Positions 8,840 to 58,852 of a stretch of 64,000 bases of DNA are shown in pieces. Origin of the DNA: Bacteroidota bacterium (GTDB taxonomy: Bacteria > Bacteroidota > Bacteroidia > UKL13-3); contig CANGVA010000003.1 in NCBI GenBank assembly GCA_947457395.1, positions 78,825 to 142,824 of the forward strand, written 5' to 3'. The notes under the pieces are model-generated. The model was not told the origin of the DNA. It searched no databases and worked only from the letters and a program-made list of their open reading frames with translations. Position numbers and translations under genes: made by a program. Numbering within the stretch: position 1 is the stretch's first letter; each line of letters opens with the position of its first letter.

Positions 8840-9055
8840 ATGGAAAAAATCAAATACTTCTTCGAAAAGCATGCTTTTGGTGTATGCACCTATATCGGGG
8901 ATAAGTTTGGCATTTCTGTTTCCCGTATCAGGCTTTATTTTATATATACATCTTTCATAACCATGGGTTCGCCTATCATATTTTATCTTGTTGCTGCTTT
9001 CTGGATTAATCTAAGAAAGTATATCAGAAGTAATAAAACAATCTGGGATTTATAA
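8840..9055 (+). CDS. PspC-domain membrane protein (phage-shock protein C family)
   Basis: MEKIKYFFEKHAFGVCTYIGDKFGISVSRIRLYFIYTSFITMGSPIIFYLVAAFWIN matches the PspC domain (G.C.G.A..FG.....R..F). The ORF-track start at 8810 is TTG and the first ATG is at 8840. The stop overlaps the HK start (TAATG at 9053-9057). Confidence 0.6.
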   Translation: MEKIKYFFEKHAFGVCTYIGDKFGISVSRIRLYFIYTSFITMGSPIIFYLVAAFWINLRKYIRSNKTIWDL

Positions 9056-42421: not shown

Positions 42422-43682
42422 ACTTATAGCGGGTAAACCACTTGTCGCTAACTGAAACACCAAGTGTAAATCTGAAATATTCTTCTTGAATTAACCCAAC
42501 TTTAGTGGTGCCGCGCATGAGGTATTCAAAACCAATGTTTAGTTTGTTTCTTGATTTACCAAGCGGCAGGCCAAGACCAACAGACAGGCCCAGATTGCCA
42601 ATATTTTCACCGTCAATCTTAAGGCTGCCGTTGTTATATCTGATACCAGCACGGTATTCAACCCTGCTGAAATAATTTTTAAAATCGAGATAATTGGGTA
42701 CCCAAGATCCGCCTGCATTTATGCCAAAAGAATTAAACAATGAATCGCTGGATCCAAAGATTCTGTAATCACTCCATTGGGTATAATTTGCCTCTGCACC
42801 CACAAACCATTTATCTTTTTTATTTAAGCCAATACCCAAAGCGTATGATGCAGGTAAAATAATATTACCTGAAATATTGTTGCGATAATCAATGGTATCA
42901 ACCACTCCAATTAAGCCGCCAATACCCATCGATTTAACAAAAAATTCACGTTGTGCGCTTAGATTACTTTGTTGCATTATGCTTCCGGCAATAATTACAC
43001 GGTAATTGGTGTCTTTTAGGTTATGCTGGTATTGAAAACTATATTGAAACTGAAAATCTCCGGCAATAATGCGGTTCTGATTTTCAATATTGAATCGCTT
43101 AAATTCACTAGGAATAATTAGCGTTTGCGTGTTTTCAAGTGTTCCAAAAATATAGGAAGCCTGTATACCGGCAGAGAACCCCTTGAACAATGAAATTCCT
43201 GTACCTCCGTAAAAACGGGTTAACCCGCCCATACCTTTTTGTTTAATGGTAGCAGTATAATCAGGAAAAATAGCTTTGCTGCTCACGTCATAACCCATAT
43301 TGCTATATGGGTCTAAGCCAAATCCAAATCCCCATTTTAACTTGTATGAAAGAGGAAAGGCAATTCTGAAATAGCTAAATGAATAACTTTCAACTGGTGA
43401 TGAGCTGGTTGCATTGGTTAGTGTTCCGTTGCTATATTCTGCACCAGCCTCAATAACTGTTTGCAGCAAGCTGCCATAGGAGGCAGGATTGGTTGAGTTT
43501 ATTTCAAACGGATTATTTAGCGTAAGGCTTAACTGGCCCATGCCAAATTGTTTAACTGTACCGCCAAAATGCTGTTCCCCGATACCAAAGGCAGAATATG
43601 GCGAACGGGTGAAATTTTGTGCCATCGCTGCAAGTGGTATAGCAATCATACAGAAAACCAGCCTAATGGCATTATTTAACAT
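42414..43682 (-). CDS. Hypothetical outer-membrane beta-barrel protein (porin-like)
   Basis: Signal peptide MLNNAIRLVFCMIAIPLAAMAQ; an SPYSAFGIGE motif; alternating amphipathic strands; C-terminal aromatic residue. Confidence 0.5.
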   Translation of the reverse strand: MLNNAIRLVFCMIAIPLAAMAQNFTRSPYSAFGIGEQHFGGTVKQFGMGQLSLTLNNPFEINSTNPASYGSLLQTVIEAGAEYSNGTLTNATSSSPVESYSFSYFRIAFPLSYKLKWGFGFGLDPYSNMGYDVSSKAIFPDYTATIKQKGMGGLTRFYGGTGISLFKGFSAGIQASYIFGTLENTQTLIIPSEFKRFNIENQNRIIAGDFQFQYSFQYQHNLKDTNYRVIIAGSIMQQSNLSAQREFFVKSMGIGGLIGVVDTIDYRNNISGNIILPASYALGIGLNKKDKWFVGAEANYTQWSDYRIFGSSDSLFNSFGINAGGSWVPNYLDFKNYFSRVEYRAGIRYNNGSLKIDGENIGNLGLSVGLGLPLGKSRNKLNIGFEYLMRGTTKVGLIQEEYFRFTLGVSVSDKWFTRYKYD

Positions 43683-44400
43683 TGTAATGGAGTATTTGGT
43701 TAAGTCCTTCCAACACAAGATTGGGGGCAGCAAATATGTTGTTTTTTAGCTGTTTCTGCAAAATACCTGCATTGCCACCGCAAAGTAGGGTTTGCAGTTC
43801 CCGATAGGTTTCTTCATAACGGCTGATGCGCCCATTTATTTCATCAATCAACCCAAAATAGGCTCCGGCAAGCAGGCAAGCAGCGGTGTTTTTACCTGTA
43901 ATTTGTTCAGGTATCTGCCACTCAGGAAGCGGTAGGCGTTGTGTAAAGGTTTGCATGGCGCGCAGGCGCATGTGCAAACCGGGCGAAATAGCACCTCCTT
44001 GATAATGTCCGTCAGCAGTTAACAGATCATATGTAACACAGGTGCCACTATCAATTACCAATACCGGCTTATCCGGATGCCTTGCCTTTGCCCCTGCAAT
44101 ACCAGCAAGTCTGTCGGCTCCTAGTGTTTGTGGAGTTTCATAATCGTTGATGAATGGCAACGGGGTATGAGCGGAAAATATCAGACAAGGCAAGGGAGCA
44201 AGTAATTTCTGAATAAGATTGGAATCAACCGATACAGAACTGATGATGGCAACGGATGCATTATGCAGGTGCGCTGTTATGTTACTTACATCGATTAGTG
44301 GCAGCACATGTAAGGATGCAAGCTCATTGCCGTTAAAATGTGCAAGTTTGATGAGTGTATTACCTGCATCTACCACCAATGTGTGTTTTATTGCAGCCAT
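43672..44400 (-). CDS. coaX: Type III pantothenate kinase
   Basis: LVVDAGNTLIK (DxGNT), GADRL, VIDSGTCVTYD. Confidence 0.85.
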   Translation of the reverse strand: MAAIKHTLVVDAGNTLIKLAHFNGNELASLHVLPLIDVSNITAHLHNASVAIISSVSVDSNLIQKLLAPLPCLIFSAHTPLPFINDYETPQTLGADRLAGIAGAKARHPDKPVLVIDSGTCVTYDLLTADGHYQGGAISPGLHMRLRAMQTFTQRLPLPEWQIPEQITGKNTAACLLAGAYFGLIDEINGRISRYEETYRELQTLLCGGNAGILQKQLKNNIFAAPNLVLEGLNQILHYNVK

Positions 44401-45197
44401 GTAATTTCTTTATTACTGAAATTTGTAACAGTTTTACCGGTTTGTACGCGTAGGCTGCCTTCTTCATTAATACCCATAGGAATGCCCTCTTCCGGTTCTT
44501 TATCTATTAAAAAGCGAGTTTGCAAACCTTTACGGTACATAACTTGTTCGTAAGCAGCAATAAGTGCTCCCAAATCCTGCATATACATTTTGTTAATGCT
44601 GCGCTGCAAGCAATTAATCAATAATTTTAGCAGGGATTTTAGCTCATAATTTGCACCGGTTAGCTGTGCCAAGGATGTGGCATTGCTGCTTGTAAAATGT
44701 GTTTGGTTTATATTCATCCCAATGCCGCAAATGCTTTGCCTGATAAACTCTCCCTGCAGGCTGTTTTCTATTAGTAAGCCGGCAATTTTTTTATCACCCG
44801 CATATATATCATTTGGCCATTTGATGCTTGCCTGCCCATTGGCATATGCAGAAACGAATTCATGCACGCCTAAACTTAATGCCAGGTTTATTTTTACTTG
44901 TTCCTGCGCATGTAGGTTGTGTGGGAATAATACTATGCTTACCGTAAGATTCAGATCTTTTGCTGCTTCCCACTTATTTTCTCCCTGACCCCTTCCTGCA
45001 TATTGGTAATGAGCACAAATAACCGCTCCGTCATCACAGGCGCCCCGCTCGCATAAGTGTTTGGCTATGTTATTGGTAGAATCTGCTTCATCTAGCCAAA
45101 TGACAGAAGATCCAATGTGATGTTGCAAAATGTTTACCTTTGCAGCCAAAGATAGAAAAAATGGCGAAGAAAGAACCTGCAAAAAAGAAAGCAGCAC
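44388..45197 (-). CDS. birA: Biotin--[acetyl-CoA-carboxylase] ligase (BirA, catalytic domain only)
   Basis: WLDEADSTNN, YAGRGQGENKW, KWPNDIY.GDKKIAGLLIE. The ORF-track start at 45197 is GTG and overlaps the divergent rsfS ORF; the true start is probably further in (for example TTG at ~45149). Confidence 0.75.
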   Translation of the reverse strand: MLLSFLQVLSSPFFLSLAAKVNILQHHIGSSVIWLDEADSTNNIAKHLCERGACDDGAVICAHYQYAGRGQGENKWEAAKDLNLTVSIVLFPHNLHAQEQVKINLALSLGVHEFVSAYANGQASIKWPNDIYAGDKKIAGLLIENSLQGEFIRQSICGIGMNINQTHFTSSNATSLAQLTGANYELKSLLKLLINCLQRSINKMYMQDLGALIAAYEQVMYRKGLQTRFLIDKEPEEGIPMGINEEGSLRVQTGKTVTNFSNKEITWLQ

Positions 45198-45634
45198 CTA
45201 AAAAAACAGCAGTAAAAAAAGTAAGTACCAAGCCCAAAGCAGAGCGACCCAAAACAAAGAAAGTTGCAGATGTTACTACCTATAGCAGCATGGCACTTGC
45301 AAAGGCTGTGGCACAGGGTATGTTTGAGTTAAAGGCAGAAGACATTAAGATACTGGATATGCGAAACATTGATAAGGCATCAGCTGACTTCTTTGTTATT
45401 TGTCATGCAAAATCAGATAAACAGGTGGAAGCTATTGGTGATTCAGTAGAAGAAGAAGTTTTTAAAATATTTAAAGAATGGCCGTGGCACCGTGAGGGCT
45501 ATGAAAATTTGGAGTGGGTGTTATTGGACTATATAGATGTGGTGGCGCATATTTTTCAGCAGGAAAAGCGCGAGTTTTATGCAGTAGAGGAACTGTGGGG
45601 CGATGCCGTAGATATCCCTTTTGAGGGAAAATAG
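45161..45634 (+). CDS. rsfS: Ribosome silencing factor RsfS (Iojap family) with a Lys/Ala/Pro-rich N-terminal extension
   Basis: Core DIKILDMRNIDKASADFFVICHAKSDKQVEAIGDSVEE...WVLLDYIDVVAHIFQQEKREFYAVEELWGDA matches the RsfS/DUF143 fold. It is preceded by MAKKEPAKKKAAPKKTAVKKVSTKPKAERPKTKKV. The ORF-track start at 45140 is TTG. Confidence 0.8.
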   Translation: MAKKEPAKKKAAPKKTAVKKVSTKPKAERPKTKKVADVTTYSSMALAKAVAQGMFELKAEDIKILDMRNIDKASADFFVICHAKSDKQVEAIGDSVEEEVFKIFKEWPWHREGYENLEWVLLDYIDVVAHIFQQEKREFYAVEELWGDAVDIPFEGK

Positions 45635-45884
45635 ACGAATGAAGCGATATGCGAGAAACGAGAAAACAGAAGAAAGATCGATGCGCTAAAAGAGCAGAGA
45701 AGTGTGAAACGAAATTCAATGCTGAAATTTGAATGTAAATAGTGCGGTTGTGAACTTTGAACGGCTAAAACTTAACAGCTGATTCTAAATTAACCCATAA
45801 AAAGCCGATCATACAACCTTTCAACCTTGTTGTCTTCTAACCTTCTAATTTTCCCTTCCCCTTAATTTTATTATTTTCGTTGCA

Positions 45885-47048
45885 ATGACTACAGAGCAGC
45901 AACTTGAATTGTCTATTGTAATGCCTTGCCTAAATGAGGCTGAAACAATTGGTGCATGTATTGAAAAAGCAATACGTTACTTAAATCAGCATCATATTAG
46001 GGGAGAAGTAATTGTTTCTGATAACGGAAGTACCGATGGCTCCATTGCTATTGCCGAAAGGCTTGGCGCCCGTGTGGTGCATGCTACTGAAAAGGGTTAT
46101 GGCAGCGCATTGATGTATGGGATAGAAGCAGCATTTGGCAAATATGTAATCATGGGTGACTCGGATGATAGCTATGATTTCTCTGCTCTCAATCCTTTTC
46201 TTATAAAACTACGTGAAGGTTACGATTTGGTGGTAGGCAACCGCTTTAAAGGCGGAATTGGCAAAGGTGCCATGCCTTTTCTGCATAAATATTTAGGTAA
46301 TCCGGTCTTGTCATTTATTGGCAAATTGTTTTTTCATTCACCTGTAAATGATTTTCATTGTGGTTTACGCGGCTTCAGACAGGATATCGTCTCGCTGTTA
46401 AATCTCCGTACCACGGGCATGGAGTTTGCTAGTGAGATGATTGTGAAAGCAAGCTTATTTAAGTTGCGTATCTGCGAAGTGCCAACTACGTTGAGTGTGG
46501 CTGGTCGTAGCCGCCCACCGCACCTGCGCACTTGGCAAGACGGCTGGCGGCATCTACGCTTTTTACTTATTTACAGTCCGCGCTGGCTTTTTTTATATCC
46601 CGGAATATTGTTGATGCTAACCGGTATGCTATCAGGCGGATTTATTATGAATGGCCCTGTTCATTTGTTTAATATTTATTTTGATACCAACACCTTGCTT
46701 TATTCAGGAGCTGCTGCCATTATTGGTTTTCAGTTAATGGTGTTCGGAATTTTTACGCGCAGGTATGCCATTCAAACTGGATTAATGCCCGACCAAAAAA
46801 CAATTTCTCTGGTAGAAAAATGGCTAACTCTGGAACGAGGAATTGTAGTTGGTGTGCTCATTACCCTTGCCGGTGTTGCAGGTTCTGCTTACTCTTTGTA
46901 TCTATGGGATCAGGTTGATTTTGGAACACTGGAATATTCTTCAATTCTGCGTGTTGTTATACCATCGGTTGTTTTTATTATTCTGGGCATTCAAACCATT
47001 TTCTCAAGTTTCTTTTTAAGTGTGCTTTCCCTTAACCGCAAGCGATGA
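45885..47048 (+). CDS. Membrane-anchored GT2 polyprenyl-phosphate glycosyltransferase (GtrB/ArnC/DPM-synthase-like, with C-terminal TM helices)
   Basis: LSIVMPCLNE, VIVSDNGSTDGS, MGDSDDSYDF (DxD), GYGSALMYG. Four hydrophobic helices in the C-terminal 150 aa. Confidence 0.8.
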   Translation: MTTEQQLELSIVMPCLNEAETIGACIEKAIRYLNQHHIRGEVIVSDNGSTDGSIAIAERLGARVVHATEKGYGSALMYGIEAAFGKYVIMGDSDDSYDFSALNPFLIKLREGYDLVVGNRFKGGIGKGAMPFLHKYLGNPVLSFIGKLFFHSPVNDFHCGLRGFRQDIVSLLNLRTTGMEFASEMIVKASLFKLRICEVPTTLSVAGRSRPPHLRTWQDGWRHLRFLLIYSPRWLFLYPGILLMLTGMLSGGFIMNGPVHLFNIYFDTNTLLYSGAAAIIGFQLMVFGIFTRRYAIQTGLMPDQKTISLVEKWLTLERGIVVGVLITLAGVAGSAYSLYLWDQVDFGTLEYSSILRVVIPSVVFIILGIQTIFSSFFLSVLSLNRKR

Positions 47049-47593
47049 AGGCGTTTGATTACTGGCTGCAAAAAAAAAGAATTGCACAGGCTGCGGCATT
47101 TATTAATACAGGCGCTCATGTGTTAGATATTGGTTCATATGATGGCGCACTCTTTAAGCAACTGTACGATAAAAATATTACTGGAGCTGGCGTAGATCCT
47201 CTGGCTAAAACGGCCGGTTATGGCCATTACCGCTTGGTAAAGGGTTTATTTCCACAGGCATTTCAACCCGATGAGTTGTTTGATTGTATTACCATGCTGG
47301 CTGTTTTGGAGCATATTCCGGTAGGGGAGCAGCCTAAACTTGCCCAAGCCTGCCACCAACACCTGAAACCAAAAGGCAGGGTAATTATTACGGTTCCTGC
47401 GCCACAGGTAGATTATATATTGGCAGTTTTGCGCTTTTTGCGCATCATAGACGGCATGTCGCTGGAGGAGCACTATGGCTTTAAAACAACAGATACCCCG
47501 CACATTTTTTCTTCACCTCTATTTAAACTCCTCAGCCACAAAACATTTCAGTTTGGGCTTAATCATGTATTTGTATTTGAAAAAGTATCATAA
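47045..47593 (+). CDS. Class I SAM-dependent methyltransferase (paralogous in type to 30385..31029)
   Basis: VLDIGSYDG (motif I), FDCITMLAVLEHI, KPKGRVIITVP. Start overlaps the GT2 stop (ATGA at 47045-47048). Confidence 0.7.
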   Translation: MKAFDYWLQKKRIAQAAAFINTGAHVLDIGSYDGALFKQLYDKNITGAGVDPLAKTAGYGHYRLVKGLFPQAFQPDELFDCITMLAVLEHIPVGEQPKLAQACHQHLKPKGRVIITVPAPQVDYILAVLRFLRIIDGMSLEEHYGFKTTDTPHIFSSPLFKLLSHKTFQFGLNHVFVFEKVS

Positions 47594-47633
47594 AGGTCTT
47601 TTCTTTACAACTTATTATTAAGCAGCAAGTATT

Positions 47634-49064
47634 GTGAGCAATTCAATTAAAGTAGCAGTTATTGGTGCCGGTCCTGCCGGTATCACAGCTGCATATCAAT
47701 TAAGCAAAGAAATATCATCGGTTGATATATATGAGGCCAGCTCGTCTGTTGGGGGCCTTGCCAAGTCGGTTGAGCTATGGGGGCAAACTGTTGATATTGG
47801 TCCGCACCGTTTTTTTAGTAGCGATACAAGAGTAAACTCTTTATGGCTAGAGGTTGTAAAAGAAGACTATGCTATGGTAAACCGCCTTACGCGTATCCTC
47901 TATAAAAACAATTTATATTTCTATCCAATTAAAGCACTTGACGCGCTTAGTAAACTGGGCCTATTTGAAGCAGCACGCTGTATGCTTAGTTTTGGTCTGG
48001 AAAGAATATTGCCAACCAAGGATAAGAGTACGTTTGAAGGATGGGTGCGCAGCCGCTTTGGGAAAAGGCTCTATGAAATATTTTTTAAAACCTACAGCGA
48101 AAAACTTTGGGGTATTCCCTGCAATGAACTGGATGCTGATTTTGCAGCACAACGCATTAAAAAACTCTCCTTGTGGGAGGCGGTAAAAGCGGCACTGTTT
48201 GGTGATAAAGATAAAAAGCACAAAACGCTGGTGGATGAATTTGCTTACCCATTGCAGGGAACAGGTATGGTTTATAATCGGATGGAGCAGCTGATTAAAG
48301 AAAAAGGTGGCAAAGTATTTTTAAAAACACCTGTAAAGCGTGTGATTGTTGAAGGTGGCATGGCCAAGGGGCTTGAACTGGAAAACGGTGAGATAAAATA
48401 TTACGACCATATTATTTCTTCCATGCCACTTACGCTGCTGGTAAGTCGCATTGATGAAGCACCCCAGCAAATAAAAAGTCTGAATGCACAACTGCGTTTC
48501 AGAAATACCATTATTGTTTTTGTTGAGGTAGATGCAACCAATTTGTTTGAAGACAATTGGCTGTATGTGCATTCAACAGATTTACGCACCGGGCGTATTA
48601 CCAATTTCAGAAACTGGGTACCTCAATTATATAAGGATAAAAAAACCAGCATACTTGCTTTGGAATACTGGTGCTATGACGAAGATGATTTCTGGAAATG
48701 GACAGATGAACAGTTGAACAATTTAGGTATGGAGGAAATACGTAAAACCGGATTAATTGGCGAGGCAAATATTTTACATGCACATACGTATCGCATACCA
48801 CGTTGTTATCCTGTATACTCAAAAGGGTACAAAGAAATTCTGAGCCCTGTTGAGCAATACCTAAGCAGCATTCAGCATCTACATGTAATTGGCCGATATG
48901 GTGCGTTTAAGTATAACAACCAGGATCACTCCATTTTAATGGGTATGCTGGCAGCTGAAAATATTTTAAAGCATACCAAGCACAATCTTTGGGAAATAAA
49001 TACTGATTACGAAAGTTATCAGGAAAGTTCAGTTATTACTAAAACCGGGCTGGTAAAAAAATGA
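47634..49064 (+). CDS. FAD-dependent oxidoreductase of the UDP-galactopyranose-mutase (Glf)-like / amine-oxidase-like family
   Basis: N-terminal KVAVIGAGPAGITAAYQL...IYEASSSVGG (FAD Rossmann). FGKRLYEIFFKTYSEKLWGIPCNELDADFAAQRIKK parallels the E. coli/Klebsiella Glf segment [33 protein letters not shown], recalled from memory. C-terminal GRYGAFKYNNQDHSILMG. GTG start at 47634 (no upstream in-frame ATG). ~100 aa longer than bacterial Glf. Confidence 0.6.
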   Translation: MSNSIKVAVIGAGPAGITAAYQLSKEISSVDIYEASSSVGGLAKSVELWGQTVDIGPHRFFSSDTRVNSLWLEVVKEDYAMVNRLTRILYKNNLYFYPIKALDALSKLGLFEAARCMLSFGLERILPTKDKSTFEGWVRSRFGKRLYEIFFKTYSEKLWGIPCNELDADFAAQRIKKLSLWEAVKAALFGDKDKKHKTLVDEFAYPLQGTGMVYNRMEQLIKEKGGKVFLKTPVKRVIVEGGMAKGLELENGEIKYYDHIISSMPLTLLVSRIDEAPQQIKSLNAQLRFRNTIIVFVEVDATNLFEDNWLYVHSTDLRTGRITNFRNWVPQLYKDKKTSILALEYWCYDEDDFWKWTDEQLNNLGMEEIRKTGLIGEANILHAHTYRIPRCYPVYSKGYKEILSPVEQYLSSIQHLHVIGRYGAFKYNNQDHSILMGMLAAENILKHTKHNLWEINTDYESYQESSVITKTGLVKK

Positions 49065-52003
49065 GTAAGAAAAACACAAGTAAACCGGCCGCTGAGCCGG
49101 TAAAAACAGTAAGTGATCAGGAGCTTACTTTTTTGTTTGTTTCAAAAGGTACTGCTTCAGATGCCAACCTGATTGCTCAGGCTATATTAAAGGTGCGAAC
49201 CGAAGCCTCATTGGTAGTAATGGATTGGAGTTGTGATGCAGAAACCCAACAGGCTATTGCTGCACTCAGAGAGAAAGGACGCTGTCATGTAATAAAAAAT
49301 ATGGATGAGTGGCAGCAACACGCGGGGCAAGTAGTTTATGTGGTAGATGATGCTGCTTCATTTAATCCGCAAGCAGTAGTAACCTGTTTTGCTGCACAAA
49401 AAAAATCGTTCACACATACAGATGCAGTTTATGCAGGTGAGTTTAACAAACAGTCGGGTAAGTTACCGCTTTCTGTTTTTCAAAAAGCAGGTATTGGTTT
49501 ATACAATTTACTGGCTTCAATGCTGCTGCCTGCAGGCATCAAAGATTTTACACATCCATTTATATTTTTTGGCAAGGATGCAGCATTAAAAGGTATTACA
49601 TCCGGTCATACCAAAAGTATCTCCGTTTGCAGCAGGCTGGCTTATTTGCAAACACCTTTCATATCATTAAACCTTACAGGCAAAGAACATCCTTATCGAA
49701 AAGTTCGTTTTAATGTAATTAGCAGCAATATACTGGCCCCGCGCATTAGCTGGTTTATTAAAGATCCGTTGGTGCGTTACGGTGTAGAAGATGCCGCAGG
49801 TTATCAGCCATTATACCGTTTGCTTTTTGTGGCCTTTTTTCTGTTTGCATTTATTGCCATGCCATACTTGAGTCAGGATTTTGGTATTACATGGGATGCA
49901 AAGCGCCACAATCAATATGGCTATCAGATGCTCAATTATTTTACCTCATTTGGCAGTGATTCTACCGCATTATCTGCTACATCACCCATTCAGGAGTTTA
50001 GATACTACGGTGAGCATTTCAATGTAATCAGTGCATTTTTTAATACTTATTTTGGTGTGCTGGGTGAGTTTGAAATGCGCCATTTGCTTAATGCTTTGTA
50101 TGGATTGCTGGCCATGTTATTTGCAGCATTGGCTGCCAAAGAAATCACCTCCTGGCGTGGAGGCTTTTTTGCTTTTGTATTGATTTTTTGTAGTCCCGTA
50201 TTTTTCGGACACAGCATGAATAACCCAACGGATATTCCTTTTGCAGCGGGTTCTGCTATGGCACTTTATTATTTATTAAAGGTGCTTAAAAATTTACCTG
50301 CACCAACATTATCGCATCTGGTATGGTGTGCAGCAGGTATAGGCATGGCCATCGGATCTCGTGTGGGTGGCATCATCTGGTATGCCTACACCGGTTTGTT
50401 TCTTGGCTTGGCATGGTTGTTTATTGCAAAGAAAGATGGCATGGGTAAAGCCATTAAAATGATTTGGCCTTATGCACGTATCTTATTGCTTATCGTGATT
50501 ATTGGTCACTTGGTTGGTATTTCCTTATGGCCGTTTGCCCAGCAAAAACCATTTACCAACTGGTATGAGGCACTTAAAAAATCAACTGAGGGTGCTTACT
50601 TTACCTATAACCATGAATTATTTGAAGGTGTTCGGATGTACATGGCCAACGTGCCCTGGTATTATTTGCCTAAGTTTATTTTTATTAATACACCGGAAGT
50701 GGTTTGGGCCGGTTTGCTTTTACTCGTGCCGCTTATCTGGGTTTTAAAGAAAACGTATACCCGCTGGTACCTCATTGGTGTGGTATTATTTGTTGCAATA
50801 TTTCCTATAGCTTATGCTGAGGTTCAGAGCATGTATTATTATAATGGCTGGAGGCATTATCTGTTTGTATATCCGCCAATTGTGGTGTTGGCTGCTTGTG
50901 GCTGGGATGCCTTGGGCGCTGTTATCAGAAATAAAATGGCATCACATCTTGCATTGGCAGGCGTGCTGGTTTTAAGTATGCTTCCGGTTTCGTGGATGAT
51001 TGCCAATCATCCCAACCAATGTGTGTATTTTAATACCCTTAGTGGCGGAACCCGGGCAGCTTATGGTAAATACGAAATGGATTATTACTCTAACTCATGC
51101 CGTGCCGCAGCAGAATGGCTTTCCAAGCAAGAGCCCAATAAAAAATTACTGGTAGGCATCAATAATGAACCACTTACTGCATCCTACTATGCCAATAAGT
51201 TTAATCCCAATATGGAGTTCAGGTGGATGCGAGAGTATGAGGAACAAAAAATCCCTTGGGACTATGCTATCCTAACCTCACGCACATATTCTTCAAAAGA
51301 GTTGGCTAATGGAGCATTCCCTCCTAAAGGAACTGTTTATACAGTTGAAGCAGATGGCATGCCGCTGGCGGCTGTTGTTAAAAGGGAAAATGACTGGATG
51401 CCCAAGGGGTATCAGGCATTTGAAGCCAGAAATTATGATACCGCACTTATCTGTTTTAGGAATGCCGAAGCCTACAACCCAAAAGATGAAGAGGTTTTTC
51501 GCATGCTGGGTTTAACTTTCATGGCGATGCGTAATGCAACAGAAGCCACCAGAAGTTTAAATAAAGCCATTGATATATATCCTGAAAATTACATGGCATG
51601 GTCGGCTCTGGGCTTGGTAGAAATTAACCTAAATAAAAATCCGGATAAAGCTATTGAATATTTTAGAAAAGCCAATGAGTATAAGTTTAATTATACCGAT
51701 GCATACTATTACACAGCCATGGCATACTATCAGAAAAAAGATTTTTCTGAAGGAATAAAATATCTGGAGATGGCAGTAAAACGTGGCGGTGGTAGTGTGG
51801 CTGATGTTTATTATAATCTTGGACTCGGCTATTTTAATACAGGCAGTTATAAAAAAGCGGAAGACAACATGATACTAGCACTTACGCTGGAGCCTAACAA
51901 TGCTATGTCATACCGCTTACTTGCAGAAGTGTTTAGCAAACAAGGTAAAAATGCCGAAGCTGAGGAGTGTATGAGAAGATATGCAGCACTGGGTGGAAAA
52001 TAA
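49061..52003 (+). CDS. Large membrane glycosyltransferase-like protein: N-terminal cytoplasmic GT-A-like domain, GT-C-like multi-TM core (ArnT/PMT-type topology) and C-terminal TPR repeats
   Basis: aa ~1-240 soluble (VVYVVDDAASF resembles a DxD region). aa ~250-650 has >=10 TM helices, with Asp-containing first loop YLSQDFGITWDAKRHNQYGY. aa ~770-980 has tandem TPR-like repeats (AEAYNPKDEEVFRMLGLTF..., AIDIYPENYMAWSALG..., YYNLGLGYFNTGSYKKAEDN...). Start overlaps the upstream stop (ATGA at 49061-49064). Confidence 0.6.
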   Translation: MSKKNTSKPAAEPVKTVSDQELTFLFVSKGTASDANLIAQAILKVRTEASLVVMDWSCDAETQQAIAALREKGRCHVIKNMDEWQQHAGQVVYVVDDAASFNPQAVVTCFAAQKKSFTHTDAVYAGEFNKQSGKLPLSVFQKAGIGLYNLLASMLLPAGIKDFTHPFIFFGKDAALKGITSGHTKSISVCSRLAYLQTPFISLNLTGKEHPYRKVRFNVISSNILAPRISWFIKDPLVRYGVEDAAGYQPLYRLLFVAFFLFAFIAMPYLSQDFGITWDAKRHNQYGYQMLNYFTSFGSDSTALSATSPIQEFRYYGEHFNVISAFFNTYFGVLGEFEMRHLLNALYGLLAMLFAALAAKEITSWRGGFFAFVLIFCSPVFFGHSMNNPTDIPFAAGSAMALYYLLKVLKNLPAPTLSHLVWCAAGIGMAIGSRVGGIIWYAYTGLFLGLAWLFIAKKDGMGKAIKMIWPYARILLLIVIIGHLVGISLWPFAQQKPFTNWYEALKKSTEGAYFTYNHELFEGVRMYMANVPWYYLPKFIFINTPEVVWAGLLLLVPLIWVLKKTYTRWYLIGVVLFVAIFPIAYAEVQSMYYYNGWRHYLFVYPPIVVLAACGWDALGAVIRNKMASHLALAGVLVLSMLPVSWMIANHPNQCVYFNTLSGGTRAAYGKYEMDYYSNSCRAAAEWLSKQEPNKKLLVGINNEPLTASYYANKFNPNMEFRWMREYEEQKIPWDYAILTSRTYSSKELANGAFPPKGTVYTVEADGMPLAAVVKRENDWMPKGYQAFEARNYDTALICFRNAEAYNPKDEEVFRMLGLTFMAMRNATEATRSLNKAIDIYPENYMAWSALGLVEINLNKNPDKAIEYFRKANEYKFNYTDAYYYTAMAYYQKKDFSEGIKYLEMAVKRGGGSVADVYYNLGLGYFNTGSYKKAEDNMILALTLEPNNAMSYRLLAEVFSKQGKNAEAEECMRRYAALGGK

Positions 52004-52056
52004 GATTGAGAGAACACTGCATAAATATTTCAAACCTAACAACACGAAATCATCAC

Positions 52057-53001
52057 ATGCAACAAGTAACAGGTAAGCGAATACTGCTCGTAATTATTAA
52101 CTGCATTATTCTGCTTAGTTTGTACGCACAAGATACCTTGCCAAAGGTTACTTCAGGAAAAGTAGAGCGCATCAGTAATTTTAAATCAGGATTTATCACA
52201 CCACGTCATATTGATATCTGGGTTCCTCCGGGCTATCCGGATTCAGGTAAATATGAGGTTTTATATATGCATGATGGACAAATGCTATACGACTCTGCCA
52301 ATACATGGAATAAGCAGGCATGGGAAATAGATAAAGTTGCTACAAAACTTATGCAATCAGGCAGGGTTAAGAACTTTATTGTTGTGGGGATTTGGAATGG
52401 CGGGCAAACCCGACACAGTGATTATTTTCCGCAGAAACCATTTGAGCTTCTCCTCAATAACACAGAACGTGATACCATTACCTCACAATTACAAAGTGCC
52501 GGGCGCATAACAACAGTATTTAAACCACAATCAGATAATTATTTGAAATTTATTGTGAATGAGTTAAAACCGATGATTGATAAAAGCTATGCAGTATATA
52601 CAAAACCGGAGCATACATTTATTGCAGGAAGTAGCATGGGCGGGTTAATTTCTTTGTATGCCGTATGCGAGTATCCGGAAGTATTTGGTGGTGCAGCATG
52701 TTTATCTACGCATTGGCCAGGCACGTTTAATGTTTTAAATAATCCGTTTCCATTAGCCATGCAGCTTTATCTAACAACGCAACTGCCCGATTCCAAGGAT
52801 CATCGTATTTATTTTGATTTTGGCAACCAGACGCTGGATGCACTATACCCACCTTTACAGAAAAATGTGGATGATATCATGCGCGCAATGAAATATAATC
52901 AAACCAACTGGATTACCTATTTTGATGAAGGTGCCGAACACAGTGAGCGTGCGTGGCGAAATAGATTGCATCTGCCGCTACTGTTTTTATTTTCGAGGTA
53001 G
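52057..53001 (+). CDS. Alpha/beta hydrolase (putative esterase family, enterochelin-esterase/esterase-D-like)
   Basis: Signal peptide; nucleophile elbow FIAGSSMGG (GxSxG); catalytic His near the C-terminus (EGAEHSERAW). Confidence 0.7.
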   Translation: MQQVTGKRILLVIINCIILLSLYAQDTLPKVTSGKVERISNFKSGFITPRHIDIWVPPGYPDSGKYEVLYMHDGQMLYDSANTWNKQAWEIDKVATKLMQSGRVKNFIVVGIWNGGQTRHSDYFPQKPFELLLNNTERDTITSQLQSAGRITTVFKPQSDNYLKFIVNELKPMIDKSYAVYTKPEHTFIAGSSMGGLISLYAVCEYPEVFGGAACLSTHWPGTFNVLNNPFPLAMQLYLTTQLPDSKDHRIYFDFGNQTLDALYPPLQKNVDDIMRAMKYNQTNWITYFDEGAEHSERAWRNRLHLPLLFLFSR

Positions 53002-53131
53002 TTTTTACAGCACTAATTCATACATCAGCCAAAACCCTCAATTCCTTTTTAAGTACCCCTATTATGCGAATTGGTTTAATTCCTCATTGAACTGCAAACA
53101 ATTCCTATATTCGTTTGCATTAAATTATCTT

Positions 53132-54469
53132 ATGAATAAAAAGTTGGGTTTATTGGATTGTATCATGCTTATCATGGGCAGTATGATTGGGTCAGGAATT
53201 TTTATTGTACCTGCTGCCATGAGCCGCGATTTACAATCGCCTGCTATATTGCTTTTGGCATGGGTTGTTACGGCCTTTATTACAGTAATCGCTGCTTTGA
53301 ATTATGGTGAACTTTCTGCCATGATACCTAAAGCAGGAGGTCAATATGTGTATTTGCAACGAGCTTATAATAACTTATTTGGATTTTTATATGGATGGAC
53401 TCTTTTTGCCGTTATTCAAACCGGCACCATAGCTGCTGTTGCTGTTGCATTTGCCAAATTTACCGGAGTTTTTTTGCCAATTATTTCTGATAAGGTAGTG
53501 TTGCTTGATTTAGGAATGATACAGATACAATCGCAACAAGCTCTTGCCATGCTTGTGATATGGATACTTACCATTTTTAATTTTTTACCTGTTAAAAACG
53601 GAGCCATACTTCAAAATACATTCACCTTTACAAAAATTGGTGCCATTGTATTTCTGTTGTTGGCAGGCCTGTACCATTTGTATGGCAAAGGAATGCAACC
53701 CATTTCTTATGCGCTTCCTTCCGGTAATATTTCTTACTGGGGCTTATTTTGTGCTGCACTGGTTGGCTCCATCTTCTCTGCAGATGCATGGAACAATATA
53801 ACGTTTACAGGAGGAGAGATTGCGCAACCACAACGAAATTTACCTCTATCACTGCTCATAGGCACACTCAGCGTTACTGCCTTATATGTTTTTATTAACT
53901 GGATTTATATCGGGGTATTACCTTTTGATGCCATAGAGCATGCTCCTTCAGACAGGGTAGGCACCTTACTATTGCAAACGGTTATGGGCGATATAGGCAT
54001 GTATGTAATGGCTGCATTTATTATGATTTCTACTTTCGGCTGCATCAATGGTATTACGTTATCCGGTGCAAGGGTTTATTATGCTATGGCACTTGATGGA
54101 TTGTTTTTTAAACGTGCGGCAACAAAGAATATTAACGATTCTCCGCAGGCTGCTCTGGTTATGCAGGCTATTTGGACCAGCATATTAACGCTTAGTGGCT
54201 CATACAGTGATCTGCTGGATTATGTGGTTTTTGCTGTGCTACTTTTTTATATACTCACTGTTGCCGGGATATTTATTCTCAGAAAAAAGGAGCCGCATAC
54301 CATAAGACCTTATAAGGTTTGGGGTTATCCTTACCTTCCTGCATTATATATAATGCTGGCCATGTTTGTATGCCTGAGCTTACTAATTTTTAAGCCTTTA
54401 TATACCTATCCGGGGCTTGCCATAGTCCTTGCAGGTATTCCTATATATTATCTGATTCGTAAAAAGTAA
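53132..54469 (+). CDS. APC-superfamily amino acid permease
   Basis: Twelve TM helices; GSMIGSGIFIVPA signature. The ORF-track start at 52922 overlaps the upstream gene; ATG at 53132. Confidence 0.85.
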   Translation: MNKKLGLLDCIMLIMGSMIGSGIFIVPAAMSRDLQSPAILLLAWVVTAFITVIAALNYGELSAMIPKAGGQYVYLQRAYNNLFGFLYGWTLFAVIQTGTIAAVAVAFAKFTGVFLPIISDKVVLLDLGMIQIQSQQALAMLVIWILTIFNFLPVKNGAILQNTFTFTKIGAIVFLLLAGLYHLYGKGMQPISYALPSGNISYWGLFCAALVGSIFSADAWNNITFTGGEIAQPQRNLPLSLLIGTLSVTALYVFINWIYIGVLPFDAIEHAPSDRVGTLLLQTVMGDIGMYVMAAFIMISTFGCINGITLSGARVYYAMALDGLFFKRAATKNINDSPQAALVMQAIWTSILTLSGSYSDLLDYVVFAVLLFYILTVAGIFILRKKEPHTIRPYKVWGYPYLPALYIMLAMFVCLSLLIFKPLYTYPGLAIVLAGIPIYYLIRKK

Positions 54470-54562
54470 TCACTACTTTTTACCCAATTAGGGTCTTCCG
54501 GGGATGATTCTTTTCTATACCTGATAAAATTTTATTTGCAATGGTTTTAATTCGCAGTAAAG

Positions 54563-55651
54563 ATGGGAATAAAGAAGCTCTTTTTTATTTTATTGCATGC
54601 CATTGTCTTTGCTGCAAATGCACAACAGGATTCGTTGCGTAGTGTTTTTAGTTATGGGGCAACCCTTCATAAGGGCTTTATTTTTGCCCATAGCAGGGAG
54701 GTACAAAATACAGCCAATTCTTATCCTACAGGTTTTCAAATAGACTTTAACTGGCAACTGGCTGATGCCAAAACCTGGAATACTTGCTATTGCTATCCAA
54801 AAACCGGATTTTTTATCCAGTACTTTAATTTTGACAATCAGATTTTGGGCCATGCCATTACCACAGCCGCGTTCATTGAACCATATTTTTCTTTTACGAA
54901 TCGCATCAATATGGCATTAAAGGCAGCAGCAGGATTATCTTATTTAACCAATCCGTATCATCCCGTAAATAATCCAAGCAACTTGTCATATAGTTTACCG
55001 GTTACCGGTTTTGTTTCATTGGGTTTGGGTGCTCACATTAAACTTTCGCAGCGTTTAAATATGAGTGCATATGTTCATTATAACCATGTATCTAACGGGG
55101 GTATCAAAGACCCGAATAAAGGTGTAAACTGGCCAACGGCTGCTTTGGGTATAGACTATAAGCCTATTGCAGCAGTTCTTCCTGTGAGGGAAAAAATAAG
55201 ATATAAAAACTATAAGGGTAAGCCACCCCGCTTGGATATTAGTGCATTTTGGTCGAGCAAAACGGTTCAGGCAGGAGAGAAGGATAGATGGATGATTGGA
55301 GGAGTAGCTGCGCAGATGAGCAAGCAAATCGGCATATTTAATGCACTTACCTTCGGAGCGGAATGGAATATAGATAATTCACTCAGGGAAAGACTCAAGC
55401 GCGATGGGAAAACCGATATAAGCAATCAGCGGATGGCTATTACCGGTGGTCATGAATTTTTAATGGGTAAGATTATTTTTAGTCAGCAACTGGGTATTTA
55501 TCTATTTAACCCAAGTGGATATTTTGATCCGGTTTTTCAACGTTATGGATTATGGTATCGATTTACCGAGCATTGGGGTGTGGGCATGAACGTGCTGGCA
55601 CACCGGCAGGTTGCCAATTTCCTTGATTTCAGGTTAGTTTATAGTCTTTAA
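54563..55651 (+). CDS. Acyloxyacyl hydrolase / PagL-like lipid A deacylase family outer-membrane protein
   Basis: Signal peptide; beta-barrel-like alternating pattern; His-x-Ser-Asn-Gly catalytic motif in YVHYNHVSNGGI. Confidence 0.55.
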   Translation: MGIKKLFFILLHAIVFAANAQQDSLRSVFSYGATLHKGFIFAHSREVQNTANSYPTGFQIDFNWQLADAKTWNTCYCYPKTGFFIQYFNFDNQILGHAITTAAFIEPYFSFTNRINMALKAAAGLSYLTNPYHPVNNPSNLSYSLPVTGFVSLGLGAHIKLSQRLNMSAYVHYNHVSNGGIKDPNKGVNWPTAALGIDYKPIAAVLPVREKIRYKNYKGKPPRLDISAFWSSKTVQAGEKDRWMIGGVAAQMSKQIGIFNALTFGAEWNIDNSLRERLKRDGKTDISNQRMAITGGHEFLMGKIIFSQQLGIYLFNPSGYFDPVFQRYGLWYRFTEHWGVGMNVLAHRQVANFLDFRLVYSL

Positions 55652-56241
55652 GGCTTGTTGCGTTCGCCTGCAGTTATTGCAATGGATAAGTTATTTTCTA
55701 CTGGCACCTTTGGGCAAGAATAGCGATGGCTGTGCGCACAATATGGATAGTAGCTTAGGTTAAAATCTACTTCGGTTTCAGATGCGTTGGGTGAGTAGGA
55801 TATATCCAGATAACGACCTCCTTCATAAGTTTCTTTGCCATTGGTAGCATCTGCAAAAGGAACAAAAAGTATACGTTGTGTACGCATTTTTTCATTCTGA
55901 TATCCAATTAATGAGTAGGCTATTCCGTTTAGGGTAAAATTGAGCTGCGCAGCTTGGAAGTAAGGCCTGAAATCTCCGCGTGAATGGGGCAATTCAATAG
56001 CACCAGTATTGGGCAGCCAAAGTACTTTTGCTTTTACTTTAAAATGTTCATCGGGTGCAAAATGAAAGATTCCATTAAATGAAAGACGCTCTGAAGCATC
56101 TAATGGAGTTTGTGTGCTATCTGAGAATGTAGCGGCATATTGCTTATGCTGTTTTGTTACGGATTGGATATACGCCTTATCAGTTTTGTTGCAACCAATT
56201 AAAACGGGTAGCCATGCAAGTGCCAGAATAATTTTATTCAT
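55648..56241 (-). CDS. DUF1684-domain lipoprotein
   Basis: Lipobox VLIGCNK. C-terminal YEGGRYLDI...DFNLSYYPYCAHSHRYSCPKVPVENNLSIAITAGE matches the DUF1684 NPYCAY...CP...N motif. Confidence 0.6.
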   Translation of the reverse strand: MNKIILALAWLPVLIGCNKTDKAYIQSVTKQHKQYAATFSDSTQTPLDASERLSFNGIFHFAPDEHFKVKAKVLWLPNTGAIELPHSRGDFRPYFQAAQLNFTLNGIAYSLIGYQNEKMRTQRILFVPFADATNGKETYEGGRYLDISYSPNASETEVDFNLSYYPYCAHSHRYSCPKVPVENNLSIAITAGERNKP

Positions 56242-57166
56242 TTATTTCAATTTCCTGCGATTGCAATACATCCTTATTAGTTGCGCTGTTTCGATGCACA
56301 AAGGCTAGAATTTTTGTGTGTTTTTTCGTGATAATAAAGCGAGGTCTGTCGGAAGGGATATTATATAAGTAACGTTTTTTAATTACCCTGCCGGCTGTAA
56401 GTGTGATGCCTGATTTATTCAATAATTCACCTGTATAAAGCGTAAACATATCACGTAATACATGGTTGTGCACGTAAGCTGAATCAAACTTTTGTGTAAT
56501 TATTCCATCTACAACGGTTTGGTATTCTTGCACATCAATCATACTGTCCTCCAGTAGCATCACACTTAAATAATTGGAGTCGGTTTGTGCCTGTGTATAG
56601 TGCATACTCACCTCAATCAGGATTTGATTAGCAGCAGCAGGCAGCTGCTTTATTTCAAGATTTACCGGAGTGGTGAGGGCGTCACGCTCTTTTATTTTGG
56701 CATTCCATATTGTTCGGTCGGTTAAGATTGCCAACTGATCAGTAAATTTTACACGGTCAACACTGCCGCGCGGAAGTGAGTTAGGAGTACCTATTATTTG
56801 TTCACAAATAGCTTTTCCTGCGTCTGTTCTAAAGTCCTGCTTGCTTATAAATGGAGTAGTAACCGGATCTACAAAAGATCCCAAAGCTGAAATATTAGGA
56901 TGAATTACTACTAAATTTAATCTGCCTTGTAATTCAGTTTTAGTAGCTAGAGCAATTTTGGTTGCATCCGGACAATTTGGACATTTTACTCCTGATATAT
57001 CCTCCAGCAGTGTGATTTTTCGTTGAGGTGCCGGAATATTATTATCTATATAGGTGGTATCAAATAATATTTTAGGCGGGTTATAATCTATAAATGGTGG
57101 TTCTTCTTCGCAGCTGCTAAAAAGCACCAACGCCATACCCCATGCAAGCAGATTTAATCTTTTCAT
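56234..57166 (-). CDS. Hypothetical lipoprotein (possibly Omp28-related)
   Basis: Lipobox LVLFSSCEEE; CPNCPD Cys pair; ~300 aa. Confidence 0.45.
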   Translation of the reverse strand: MKRLNLLAWGMALVLFSSCEEEPPFIDYNPPKILFDTTYIDNNIPAPQRKITLLEDISGVKCPNCPDATKIALATKTELQGRLNLVVIHPNISALGSFVDPVTTPFISKQDFRTDAGKAICEQIIGTPNSLPRGSVDRVKFTDQLAILTDRTIWNAKIKERDALTTPVNLEIKQLPAAANQILIEVSMHYTQAQTDSNYLSVMLLEDSMIDVQEYQTVVDGIITQKFDSAYVHNHVLRDMFTLYTGELLNKSGITLTAGRVIKKRYLYNIPSDRPRFIITKKHTKILAFVHRNSATNKDVLQSQEIEINE

Positions 57167-57175
57167 TTGTCAAAT

Positions 57176-58852
57176 TTAAAAATTTGTTGTCAAAGTAATT
57201 CGGCCCCCGCTAAAAGCAGGCTCTATGCGGCAAACACCACCGGTGCAATTAACACCCTGGGGCTGCTTTAAAAATGCCACGGTTAAGCGTGATGTTTTAT
57301 AAGTGTAGGCAGCAAAAAAGTTGTAGTAATGAATAAACTCAAACTTTTCGCCTGGTCCAGGTTTATTGATGGTGCCATGTTCGATATTTATCAAATCACC
57401 TGCTGCAAACGACCAATGAGGTGCAATATTATATTCAATCAATGCATTCACAAACTTGCCAAGATCCTGATTGGTATGCATATATTGCCACTCAAACCTT
57501 AAAGAGCGCGTAGAATTAAACTTATAGGTAAATTCACCAAACGGAGTAATGGCATTAACATAAGGTGCTTTCTCCTGTGGTTTGCCCTCAAACAGTACCT
57601 GATTATATCCGATAAATTGAATGCCTGCCATCATTTTAAATGCAGAGGTAAATTTATAAGTTGCGTCTATATAAAACTCGCTGAATAAGCGCGTTGTGCT
57701 ATCCCATTTAATTTCAGGTATGGCGTTTTTAAAATTAACTCCGCTAAGCATATTAACTGCAGATGTGTTTACATTCATGGCAAACTTTTTATTTGGCTTG
57801 AATGTAATTTCAAGTTGTGCGGCATTTTCACCAAGCTCCTGCACCACTGAGTTATAGCGAGCCAGTAATCTATACGTATTTTGGCGTGTTAGTGCAGGTA
57901 AATAGTTAATTACTGCACTATTAGGGAAAGGTTGTATTTCTAATGGATTAACACGTAACGGATACGTTTCAATTCTGCGTATTTGACCATTGATACCAAG
58001 ACCTTTTGTTGCATAAGAAAGACTCGCATAATAAACGTTGCCTCCTTTTTTAACTAATGTATTGCTGTAATCTAAAATTGCTTCGGGCGACTTATTGCAA
58101 TACTCCAGATAGAGTGTAAACTTTTTGTAGTTGAGTGTATTATAGATATTCCAAGAATACACATTATATGTAGGATTAAATCTTTTCTCAAGTGCATAGC
58201 CATTAATTGTATTAGCAATTTGGCTCATGGTGTTCTGGTCGAGTGTTCTATTTACCAAGGAAGCTCCCATATCCAAAATGGCATTTTCTGAAACAGGTAA
58301 ACGGTATTCTACATTGCCTCCTTTGATAACAGGCTCTCTGAAATCAAAGCGGAATTTTTGTCTGCCTGTAAATGCTTTAATGCGTAAGTTTTCATTCGGG
58401 GTATAAACAATGCGTGCCCCTTGAATTGCAAAATCTATACCTATGTTACGATCTTCGTATGCACGAAAGATGAGGCCAGTACCAAACTGATCGTAAAAGT
58501 AACCTCCTGTGATACTGAATTTATCTATCTCCTTTGTTATTTCCCAATAGCCCAGTCCCTGATTTGTATATGCCTGAAAAGGATTGAATAGCGGAGAATT
58601 ATTGAATAAATCATAACGAACAGTAAAGTTAAAGCCATGCAGTTTATAATTCATAAAGAGCCATGCTTCTGTAGATGACTTTTCTCTCAAATACTGTGTA
58701 GTGTTAGCTCCAATTCTATCATCACGCATATAGAATTGTGTATTCATCTGAAAATTGCCTGAAAATTGACCTTTGTCTGTTAACTCGCCTCCTTGCTGTG
58801 CTTTCAAGGTGAAAGAAGCAAGCATTAGCGCAACAACATAAATTTTTCTCAT
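57176..58852 (-). CDS. Hypothetical outer-membrane beta-barrel protein
   Basis: Signal peptide MRKIYVVALMLASFTLKAQQ (upstream ORF-track start is non-ATG). Alternating aromatic/hydrophilic strand pattern throughout; terminal Phe. Confidence 0.5.
   Translation of the reverse strand: MRKIYVVALMLASFTLKAQQGGELTDKGQFSGNFQMNTQFYMRDDRIGANTTQYLREKSSTEAWLFMNYKLHGFNFTVRYDLFNNSPLFNPFQAYTNQGLGYWEITKEIDKFSITGGYFYDQFGTGLIFRAYEDRNIGIDFAIQGARIVYTPNENLRIKAFTGRQKFRFDFREPVIKGGNVEYRLPVSENAILDMGASLVNRTLDQNTMSQIANTINGYALEKRFNPTYNVYSWNIYNTLNYKKFTLYLEYCNKSPEAILDYSNTLVKKGGNVYYASLSYATKGLGINGQIRRIETYPLRVNPLEIQPFPNSAVINYLPALTRQNTYRLLARYNSVVQELGENAAQLEITFKPNKKFAMNVNTSAVNMLSGVNFKNAIPEIKWDSTTRLFSEFYIDATYKFTSAFKMMAGIQFIGYNQVLFEGKPQEKAPYVNAITPFGEFTYKFNSTRSLRFEWQYMHTNQDLGKFVNALIEYNIAPHWSFAAGDLINIEHGTINKPGPGEKFEFIHYYNFFAAYTYKTSRLTVAFLKQPQGVNCTGGVCRIEPAFSGGRITLTTNF

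Follow-up and report, generated by a model that had tools for sequence, protein, structure and literature searches.

A candidate periplasmic glycosyltransferase of Bacteroidota with a degenerate GT2 domain ahead of its GT-C core and TPR repeats

Domain layout and membrane core

The window analyzed here is a 64,000-nucleotide stretch of a Bacteroidota genome (assembly GCA_947457395.1, contig CANGVA010000003.1, positions 78,825 to 142,824 of the forward strand). It contains an open reading frame (ORF) at 49061..52003 on the plus strand that begins with ATG and encodes a protein of 980 amino acids, hereafter the target, whose start codon overlaps the stop codon of an upstream gene for an FAD-dependent protein by 4 nt (ATGA). 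The source database labels the target only as “TPR repeat protein” or “tetratricopeptide repeat protein”. It has three parts: a soluble N-terminal domain (N-domain, residues ~1-240), a GT-C glycosyltransferase core followed by a periplasmic domain (residues 250-778), and six tetratricopeptide repeats (TPRs, residues 779-976). A first-pass annotation made from the sequence had proposed this order of GT-A-like, GT-C-like and TPR parts, with at least ten transmembrane (TM) helices and at least four repeats. Pfam matches and AlphaFold2 modeling bear out the architecture, with 11 TM helices and six repeats counted in the model.

The full-length AlphaFold2 model (mean predicted local distance difference test score [pLDDT] 90.6, predicted TM-score [pTM] 0.87) consists of an alpha/beta domain at residues 22-212, an amphipathic helix pair at 217-238, 11 membrane helices between residues 250 and 649, a periplasmic alpha/beta domain at ~660-775, and 12 helices at 779-976 that make up the six TPRs. 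The membrane core (residues 250-649; 49808..51007, + strand) is defined by this model and by hydropathy analysis, and has a long first periplasmic loop and a second long loop between TM7 and TM8. Two Pfam families score above their cut-offs within it, PMT_2 at residues 325-481 (30.9 bits, cut-off 26.1) and PMT at 319-480 (23.5 bits, cut-off 22.7). When the full-length model was searched with Foldseek, most matches were to TPR proteins; the best membrane match, at rank 20, was ArnT (5ezm/5f15; 5ezm, E = 4.9e-7 over 599 columns), and there were no TMTC or TMEM260 structures in the top 50.

The first periplasmic loop carries the motif S271-x-D273-x-G275-x-T-W278-D279-x-K-x-H283-N-x-Y286 (49871..49918, + strand), which takes in most of the acidic segment singled out by the first-pass annotation (YLSQDFGITWDAKRH, residues 269-283). 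Among 118 full-length homologues, S271, G275, W278, D279 and Y286 are present in every sequence, H283 in 117 and D273 in 88; Asp279 is the candidate catalytic residue. The target has two features typical of the GT-C superfamily, a polytopic core of 8-13 TM helices that resembles known GT-C enzymes and a conserved acidic residue in the first extracytoplasmic loop. Neither of the outcomes that would have spoken against the first-pass annotation was found: the membrane core matches glycosyltransferases (ArnT, PMT_2), and the N-domain is a GT-A domain rather than a simple spacer (see below).

After TM11 there is an alpha/beta domain predicted to be periplasmic (residues ~650-778; 51008..51394, + strand), with strands and helices modeled at 663-774, mostly at pLDDT >85. 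Its invariant residues include N658, G662, G663, E672, Y675, Y676, W722 and R724. The TPR region (51395..51988, + strand) is matched by Pfam TPR_1, TPR_2, TPR_16 and many other TPR families over residues 780-976, and by consensus-TPR designs and the TPR domain of OGT in Foldseek (E = 1e-9 to 1e-7). The TPRs are predicted to lie in the periplasm, since the N-domain is cytoplasmic and the number of TM helices is odd. By analogy with TMTC, TMEM260 and OGT, they probably select a periplasmic acceptor, most likely a protein. The GT-C core should use a sugar donor linked to a lipid phosphate, as the context suggests: a glycosyltransferase family 2 (GT2) polyprenyl-phosphate sugar synthase is encoded next to it or fused to it.

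Ancestry and degeneration of the N-domain

A Pfam search with the isolated N-terminal region of the target (residues 1-249) returned no match even at E ≤10. The GT2 relationship of this region is visible only through a family profile, sequence intermediates and structure, and not by single-sequence methods. A profile and an AlphaFold2 model were built from 51 aligned N-terminal regions of homologues. The model (pLDDT 90.7, pTM 0.85) has seven main strands alternating with helices, followed by two amphipathic helices; this is the alpha/beta/alpha sandwich with a mixed sheet of ~7 strands seen in solved GT2 structures, and it identifies the fold at residues ~20-212 (49118..49696, + strand) as GT-A. 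Foldseek against the PDB placed Pyrococcus furiosus DPMS first (5mm1, E = 5e-8), followed by ArnC and GtrB and, after these polyprenyl-phosphate synthases, the generic GT2 enzymes SpsA, TarS and GpgS. AlphaFold2 and Foldseek thus settled the fold and the domain boundaries, which the first-pass annotation had proposed checking.

The structural matches to polyprenyl-phosphate GT2s take in the juxtamembrane (JM) helices, whose role has been described for GtrB (PMC12698845). In the target, the helices at residues 139-155 and 217-238 correspond in the alignment to JM1 and JM2, respectively, of the intact GT2 domains that some relatives carry fused to the same core. The second of these regions (49709..49774, + strand) is modeled as two amphipathic helices, 217-222 and 226-238, aligns with the RLKWxxFI helix of the intact fused GT2s, links the GT-A domain to TM1 and would be the counterpart of JM2 in GtrB-type enzymes.

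Sequence intermediates connect the N-domain to true GT2 enzymes. The family profile matches SpsA over the region of the DxD motif (E = 0.0076); PF00535 is still matched by 5 of the 51 family N-domains (best E = 2.8e-11); alignment of the profile with the stand-alone GT2 encoded upstream of the target spans 216 columns (hhalign, E = 4.5e-5); and in a MAFFT alignment the N-domain of the target aligns end to end with the intact GT2 domains fused to the same GT-C/TPR core. The segment VVYVVDDAASF (residues 91-101), which had been likened to a GT-A DxD region, falls on the DxD strand in the SpsA-profile, upstream-GT2 and intact-fusion alignments, and is thus homologous to that strand in real GT2 enzymes. 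We conclude that the N-domain descends from a polyprenyl-phosphate GT2 synthase of the GtrB/ArnC type.

The catalytic motifs of this ancestor are not preserved. Six canonical GT2 motifs were scored by regular expression in 343 sequences, with 0-2 of 6 taken as degenerate; this gave 253 degenerate sequences, 12 that were either intact or intermediate, and 78 without such a domain. The target scores 0 of 6. In the MAFFT alignment, IPCYNE of the intact domains is replaced by FVSKG in the target, VDDGSxD by MDWSCDA, LDADM (the DxD motif) by VDDAA, IGSRE by AGEFN, and DTQCGFKLY by DFTHPFIFF, while the segments NxGKGxAL and GWAHDVE are deleted. The nucleotide-binding motifs P-x-Y-N-E and (V/I)-D-D-G-S-x-D are missing from the target, as is a PF00535 match, and of DDGSxD it keeps only D55, S57 and D59. 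The degenerate DxD strand, V94-V95-D96-D97-A98-A99-S100 (49340..49360, + strand), aligns to DSD of the upstream GT2 and to LDADM of the intact fused domains. It contains no complete metal-binding DxD: the aligned position reads D96-D97-A98, with alanine in place of the second aspartate needed to coordinate Mg/Mn and the nucleotide-sugar diphosphate.

Catalysis by GtrB requires the DxD residues D94 and D96, Q98, and a phosphate-binding pocket around R122, an arginine described as universally conserved (PMC12698845). No counterparts of D94/D96, Q98 or R122 were found in the target alignment; at the position of the basic pocket, G-S-R of the intact domains aligns to A-G-E-F. The columns of the nucleotide/metal pocket vary freely across the 118 homologues: position 96 is most often D (45), E (26) or Y (16); position 97 is N (28), D (26) or E (15); position 98 is A (22), T (21), I (13), V (11), P (9) or K (8), with D outside the six commonest residues; and position 55 is S, T, V or D. 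Other features are retained, namely K114-K115, Y148-N149, P157, D162 and the JM helices, and some of these positions are near-invariant (K115 in 110, N149 in 110 and D162 in 104 of the 118). Because the motifs that bind nucleotide-sugar, metal and phosphate have been lost, we propose from the sequence, and with high confidence, that the N-domain is a catalytically dead pseudoenzyme. Of the two options raised in the first-pass annotation, a degenerate or regulatory GT-A module and a self-contained synthase-transferase, the degenerate module is therefore favored for the target, and the second fits only a minority of relatives.

The N-domain is nevertheless not decaying. Estimates of dN/dS are 0.21 for the N-domain, 0.088 for the GT-C core and 0.082 for the TPRs; these are based on a single unsaturated pair of loci (L003/L004, dS ~0.3), as comparisons of the window with its nearest relatives are saturated (dS >1.3 or undefined). 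The dN of the N-domain is 2-2.5 times that of the other parts, and its mean column conservation is 0.36, compared with 0.65 for the GT-C core and 0.59 for the TPRs. A dN/dS of 0.21 shows that the domain is under purifying selection. Among the complete ORFs from related loci, eight lack an N-terminal extension of 234-299 amino acids and all the others have one.

Gene neighborhood and relatives

Three genes on the plus strand lie immediately upstream of the target gene. The one at 45885..47048 encodes an intact, stand-alone GT2 polyprenyl-phosphate sugar synthase of 387 amino acids, which matches PF00535 (E = 3.7e-28), the NCBIfam models for AglJ (2.7e-36, below the model cut-off) and for a dolichyl-phosphate hexose transferase, and, as its best PDB hit, P. 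furiosus DPMS (5mlz, 1.1e-12). It has the motifs DSD (DxD), DNGSTD and GNR, and a hydrophobic C-terminal region with ~4 TM helices as judged by eye. Orthologues of this gene are located directly upstream of many members of the target family, and its product probably makes the lipid-linked donor. We considered whether the N-domain might be a recent duplicate of this GT2 and rejected it, as the two belong to different subfamilies. The stand-alone enzyme is DPMS/AglJ-like and the fused lineage ArnC/GtrB-like, so the putative trans-acting synthase comes from another subfamily and is not a split-off copy of the fused domain.

The next gene (47045..47593), whose first 4 nt are shared with the end of the GT2 gene, encodes a SAM-dependent methyltransferase of 182 amino acids (Pfam Methyltransf_23, 6.1e-17). 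Methyltransf_23 genes are the commonest partners beside the GT-C/TPR family; in many loci whose N-domain is degenerate they lie on the upstream side. The third gene (47634..49064) encodes an FAD-dependent, UDP-galactopyranose mutase (UGM)-like protein of 476 amino acids, with matches to NCBIfam PRK07208.1-4 (550 bits) and to Pfam Amino_oxidase and NAD_binding_8; its best PDB matches are eukaryote-type UGMs (Trypanosoma cruzi 4dsg, 3.7e-22; Aspergillus fumigatus 3uka). This gene adjoins the target gene only in the subclade of the target, where the two genes either run in the same direction and overlap at ATGA or diverge, which suggests a clade-specific change in the donor sugar; that the sugar is a furanose or otherwise rearranged is speculation prompted by the likeness to UGM. 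The operon call is based on gene overlaps and synteny. A scan for sigma-70 promoters and terminators performed no better than on shuffled sequences, and the sigma-70 model does not cover Bacteroidota promoters.

Our searches recovered at least 586 relatives of the target in GTDB species genomes, the closest of which is 79% identical (a Sphingobacteriales metagenome-assembled genome, MAG). Seventy-nine loci were kept from the GTDB scan, all labeled as MAGs and mostly assigned to Bacteroidota or Bacteroidia. The GT-C core alone (residues 250-780), searched against 1.84 billion representative sequences, gave 5621 matches at E ≤0.001.

A minority of the relatives have a canonical GT2 at the same N-terminal position (L081, a Saprospiraceae MAG; P0154, P0164, P0171, P0215, P0217). 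These fused domains score 77-93 bits on PF00535, and that of L081 (ORF 6251-9292) matches ArnC (2.6e-15) and GtrB (1.7e-12). The available flanks of the intact-fusion loci L081, L082 and L083 showed no additional GT2 gene, the upstream flank being short in L082 and L083; a Methyltransf_23 gene lies directly downstream in L082 (5582-6301) and L083 (6750-7538), the intact-fusion loci with called genes. The intact-fusion relatives are candidate single-polypeptide synthase-transferases. In a neighbor-joining tree of the core they form one clade outside that of the target, and the midpoint-rooted tree is compatible with one or several degeneration events.

Fusion of the N-domain is not universal among relatives, a point the first-pass annotation had asked about. 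A sister group of ~805 amino acids (L072-L076, L078) has no N-domain and only ~65 residues before TM1, with no GT2 or methyltransferase gene in the available flanks (up to ~7 kb); in the core tree, 54 sequences belong to the class without the domain. Gene order also varies. The full order GT2-methyltransferase-FAD-target occurs in the window, L004 and L011, and the FAD and target genes are divergent in L001, L005-L010, L019, L064 and L065. Many loci have GT2-methyltransferase-target, and GT2-target also occurs, so that GT2-(methyltransferase)-target synteny is present in roughly half of the loci examined. No partner genes were found within the flanks examined in L021 and most of the more distant loci.

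Several other genes in the window have features worth recording. The gene for the ribosomal silencing factor RsfS at 45140-45634 (+ strand) encodes a ~55-residue N-terminal extension highly enriched in Lys, Ala and Pro (KKEPAKKKAAPKKTAVKKVSTKPKAERPKTKK); the Pfam domain spans residues 56-153 only, and the start is uncertain (TTG at 45140 or ATG seven codons on). For an esterase-family ORF at 51967-53001 (+ strand; Pfam Esterase, 1.9e-27), the listed GTG start falls within the GT-C gene, giving a 37-nt overlap with its end; a more plausible start appears to be a downstream Met, after which comes a hydrophobic stretch like that of a signal peptide (MQQVTGKRILLVIINCIILLSLYA). A gene at 54563-55651 (+ strand), 2.5 kb downstream of the GT-C gene, encodes a protein of 362 residues that is predicted to lie in the outer membrane and has a PagL (lipid A 3-O-deacylase) domain spanning residues 60-196.

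Proposed role and comparison with known systems

Taken together, these results lead us to regard the target as a likely TMTC/ArnT-like periplasmic glycosyltransferase carrying a pseudo-GT2 domain that probably serves in docking or lipid handling, and not as a self-contained synthase-transferase. Its part would be that of the transferase in a system for periplasmic glycosylation that draws on a lipid-linked sugar donor, with residues 250-778 acting as an ArnT/PMT/TMTC-type GT-C enzyme that takes the sugar from a polyprenyl-phosphate carrier. An active synthase of the GtrB/ArnC type would once have been fused to the GT-C core, and is still intact in some relatives; the lineage of the target has kept the GT-A fold and the JM helices and lost the motifs that bind nucleotide-sugar, metal and phosphate. 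Two genes upstream, the intact DPMS/AglJ-like GT2 would make the donor in trans, and the methyltransferase and the UGM-like flavoprotein presumably shape the sugar. The dead domain may dock the stand-alone synthase or hold the polyprenyl-phosphate lipid at the cytoplasmic face, and either function could couple donor synthesis to use or aid recycling of the carrier. Our confidence that the N-domain persists as such a docking or lipid-handling module is moderate to low.

A bolder form of this proposal is that the dead GT2 is an adaptor that assembles with the DPMS-like synthase, or that holds undecaprenyl phosphate or its sugar adduct through the JM helices, within a trans-membrane machine for synthesis, flipping and transfer. 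Together with the intact-fusion relatives, near which neither a separate synthase gene nor a flippase gene is seen, this would constitute the first natural single-polypeptide system running from donor synthesis on one membrane face to GT-C transfer on the other. We offer it tentatively.

Several observations weigh against the proposed role. There is no GtrA-type or other obvious flippase gene in the 43.6-57.2 kb region (window positions 43600-57200). Many genomes of the nearest subclade (L001, L005-L010, L019, L064, L065) have no adjacent GT2 gene, so that a synthase elsewhere in the genome has to be assumed for them. Where a stand-alone GT2 is present, it is DPMS-like, while the fused ancestor was ArnC/GtrB-like, and members of different subfamilies might not interact. 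The target also still has D55, D59, D96-D97 and D162, which are compatible with a non-canonical site, and WrtF, a metal-independent GT-A enzyme found among the Foldseek matches of the N-domain, is described as able to function with neither metal nor cationic residues (PMC12595478).

The last two points bear on an alternative in which the N-domain is an active, non-canonical synthase and the target is self-contained after all. The domain has the fold of a donor synthase and has kept K114-K115, D96-D97, Y148-N149 and D162 (the last in 104/118 homologues); metal-independent catalysis has the precedent of WrtF, and the existence of the design is shown by relatives whose fused GT2 is intact and whose examined flanks contain no other GT2 gene. 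We nonetheless find this improbable given that none of the six canonical motifs remains, that deletions have removed the N-x-GKG-x-A and GWAHDVE segments, that nothing in the target corresponds to GtrB R122, that the columns of the nucleotide and metal site are free to vary across the 118 homologues, and that the operon also contains a gene for an intact GT2. Somewhat less improbable, but still unlikely, is that the N-domain is a relic or inert spacer, kept only since the insertion of TM1 into the membrane would be disturbed without it. Of the three parts of the protein it is the least conserved (0.36 vs. 0.65 and 0.59), its dN is 2-2.5 times higher, and the ~805-residue clades (L072-L076, L078; the 54 sequences without the domain) manage without it. 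A mere spacer is difficult to reconcile with the clear purifying selection implied by a dN/dS of 0.21, with a fold held across at least 250 diverged sequences, enough for a pLDDT of 90, with the near-invariance of K115 (110), N149 (110) and D162 (104) among the 118 homologues, and with an extension whose length is tightly held (234-299 amino acids). That the domain is unrelated to GT-A, being a generic Rossmann-like or nucleotidyltransferase-like fold that resembles GT2 by chance, is very improbable indeed: it is contradicted by the sequence intermediates to true GT2s fused at the same site of the same GT-C core, and the top structural matches are specifically polyprenyl-phosphate GT2s, JM helices included.

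Pairs of GT2 synthases and GT-C transferases modify O-antigens, teichoic acids, lipid A and proteins, and how such enzymes are coupled across the membrane, and how the donors are flipped, is still poorly understood. On a single GT-C/TPR core, the family described here provides a natural series of three forms: fusion to an intact GT2 with no separate synthase gene nearby, fusion to a dead one with a synthase in trans (the window), and no fusion. This series makes coupling, channeling and pseudoenzyme function directly testable; if the adaptor or single-polypeptide reading were true, it would also give a handle on how lipid-linked donors are flipped. With 5621 cluster representatives for its core, the family is a large bacterial counterpart of the TMTC/TMEM260 architecture, and points to an uncharacterized pathway of envelope glycosylation, possibly of proteins, in freshwater and soil Bacteroidota. 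Neither a GT2-GT-C(-TPR) fusion nor a GT-C enzyme with a pseudo-GT2 domain was met in a literature search whose incomplete coverage makes this weak evidence; the variant appears to be undescribed, although each of its components is of a known kind.

With ArnT and PMT the target has in common a multi-spanning core, an Asp conserved in the first loop on the periplasmic side and a periplasmic domain that follows the final TM helix; it has 11 modeled TM helices rather than the 13 of ArnT, lacks a counterpart of the MIR domain of PMT, and adds the N-terminal GT-A and C-terminal TPR domains. The layout matches the one described for TMTC enzymes (PMC7801869), which have 11 TM helices, an acidic motif in their first loop (EL1), a long loop between TM7 and TM8, and TPRs in the lumen, and whose nearest solved structure is ArnT. 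Like the eukaryotic protein O-mannosyltransferases TMTC1-4 and TMEM260, the target has 11 TM helices in a GT-C core, a cytoplasmic N-terminus and C-terminal TPRs on the non-cytoplasmic side (as predicted from the odd number of TM helices), and is structurally nearest to ArnT. It differs in that its host is bacterial, its EL1 motif is S-x-D-x-G-x-T-W-D instead of the DD of TMTC, the TMTC signature DUF1736 (PF08409) is absent from its Pfam matches, and neither TMTC nor TMEM260 has anything equivalent to its cytoplasmic GT-A domain.

The N-domain resembles GtrB, ArnC and DPMS, its best structural matches, in its GT-A fold, strand order and two membrane-interface helices, but has no DxD, no equivalents of Q98 and R122, and no DDGSxD, GKG or QCGFK motifs. 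In GtrB and ArnC a C-terminal TM hairpin follows the catalytic domain, and in the target its place is taken by a whole GT-C enzyme. GtrB itself is a homotetramer. In three-component systems (GtrA/GtrB/Gtr-type, CsbB/GtcA/YfhO, PgfS/PgfM1), as is proposed for the target, a cytoplasmic GT2 makes a polyprenyl-phosphate sugar that is flipped and then used by a GT-C enzyme on the outer side, with the GT2 and GT-C genes as neighbors. The target locus departs from these systems in having a second, dead GT2 fused to the GT-C enzyme, no GtrA-type flippase nearby, and an added methyltransferase and UGM-like flavoprotein, and in having relatives with a live fused copy and no separate synthase seen nearby. 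Mycobacterium tuberculosis Ppm1 likewise has a donor synthase covalently joined to a polytopic membrane domain; there, the membrane domain is related to Lnt and not to GT-C, and the synthase domain is C-terminal and active.

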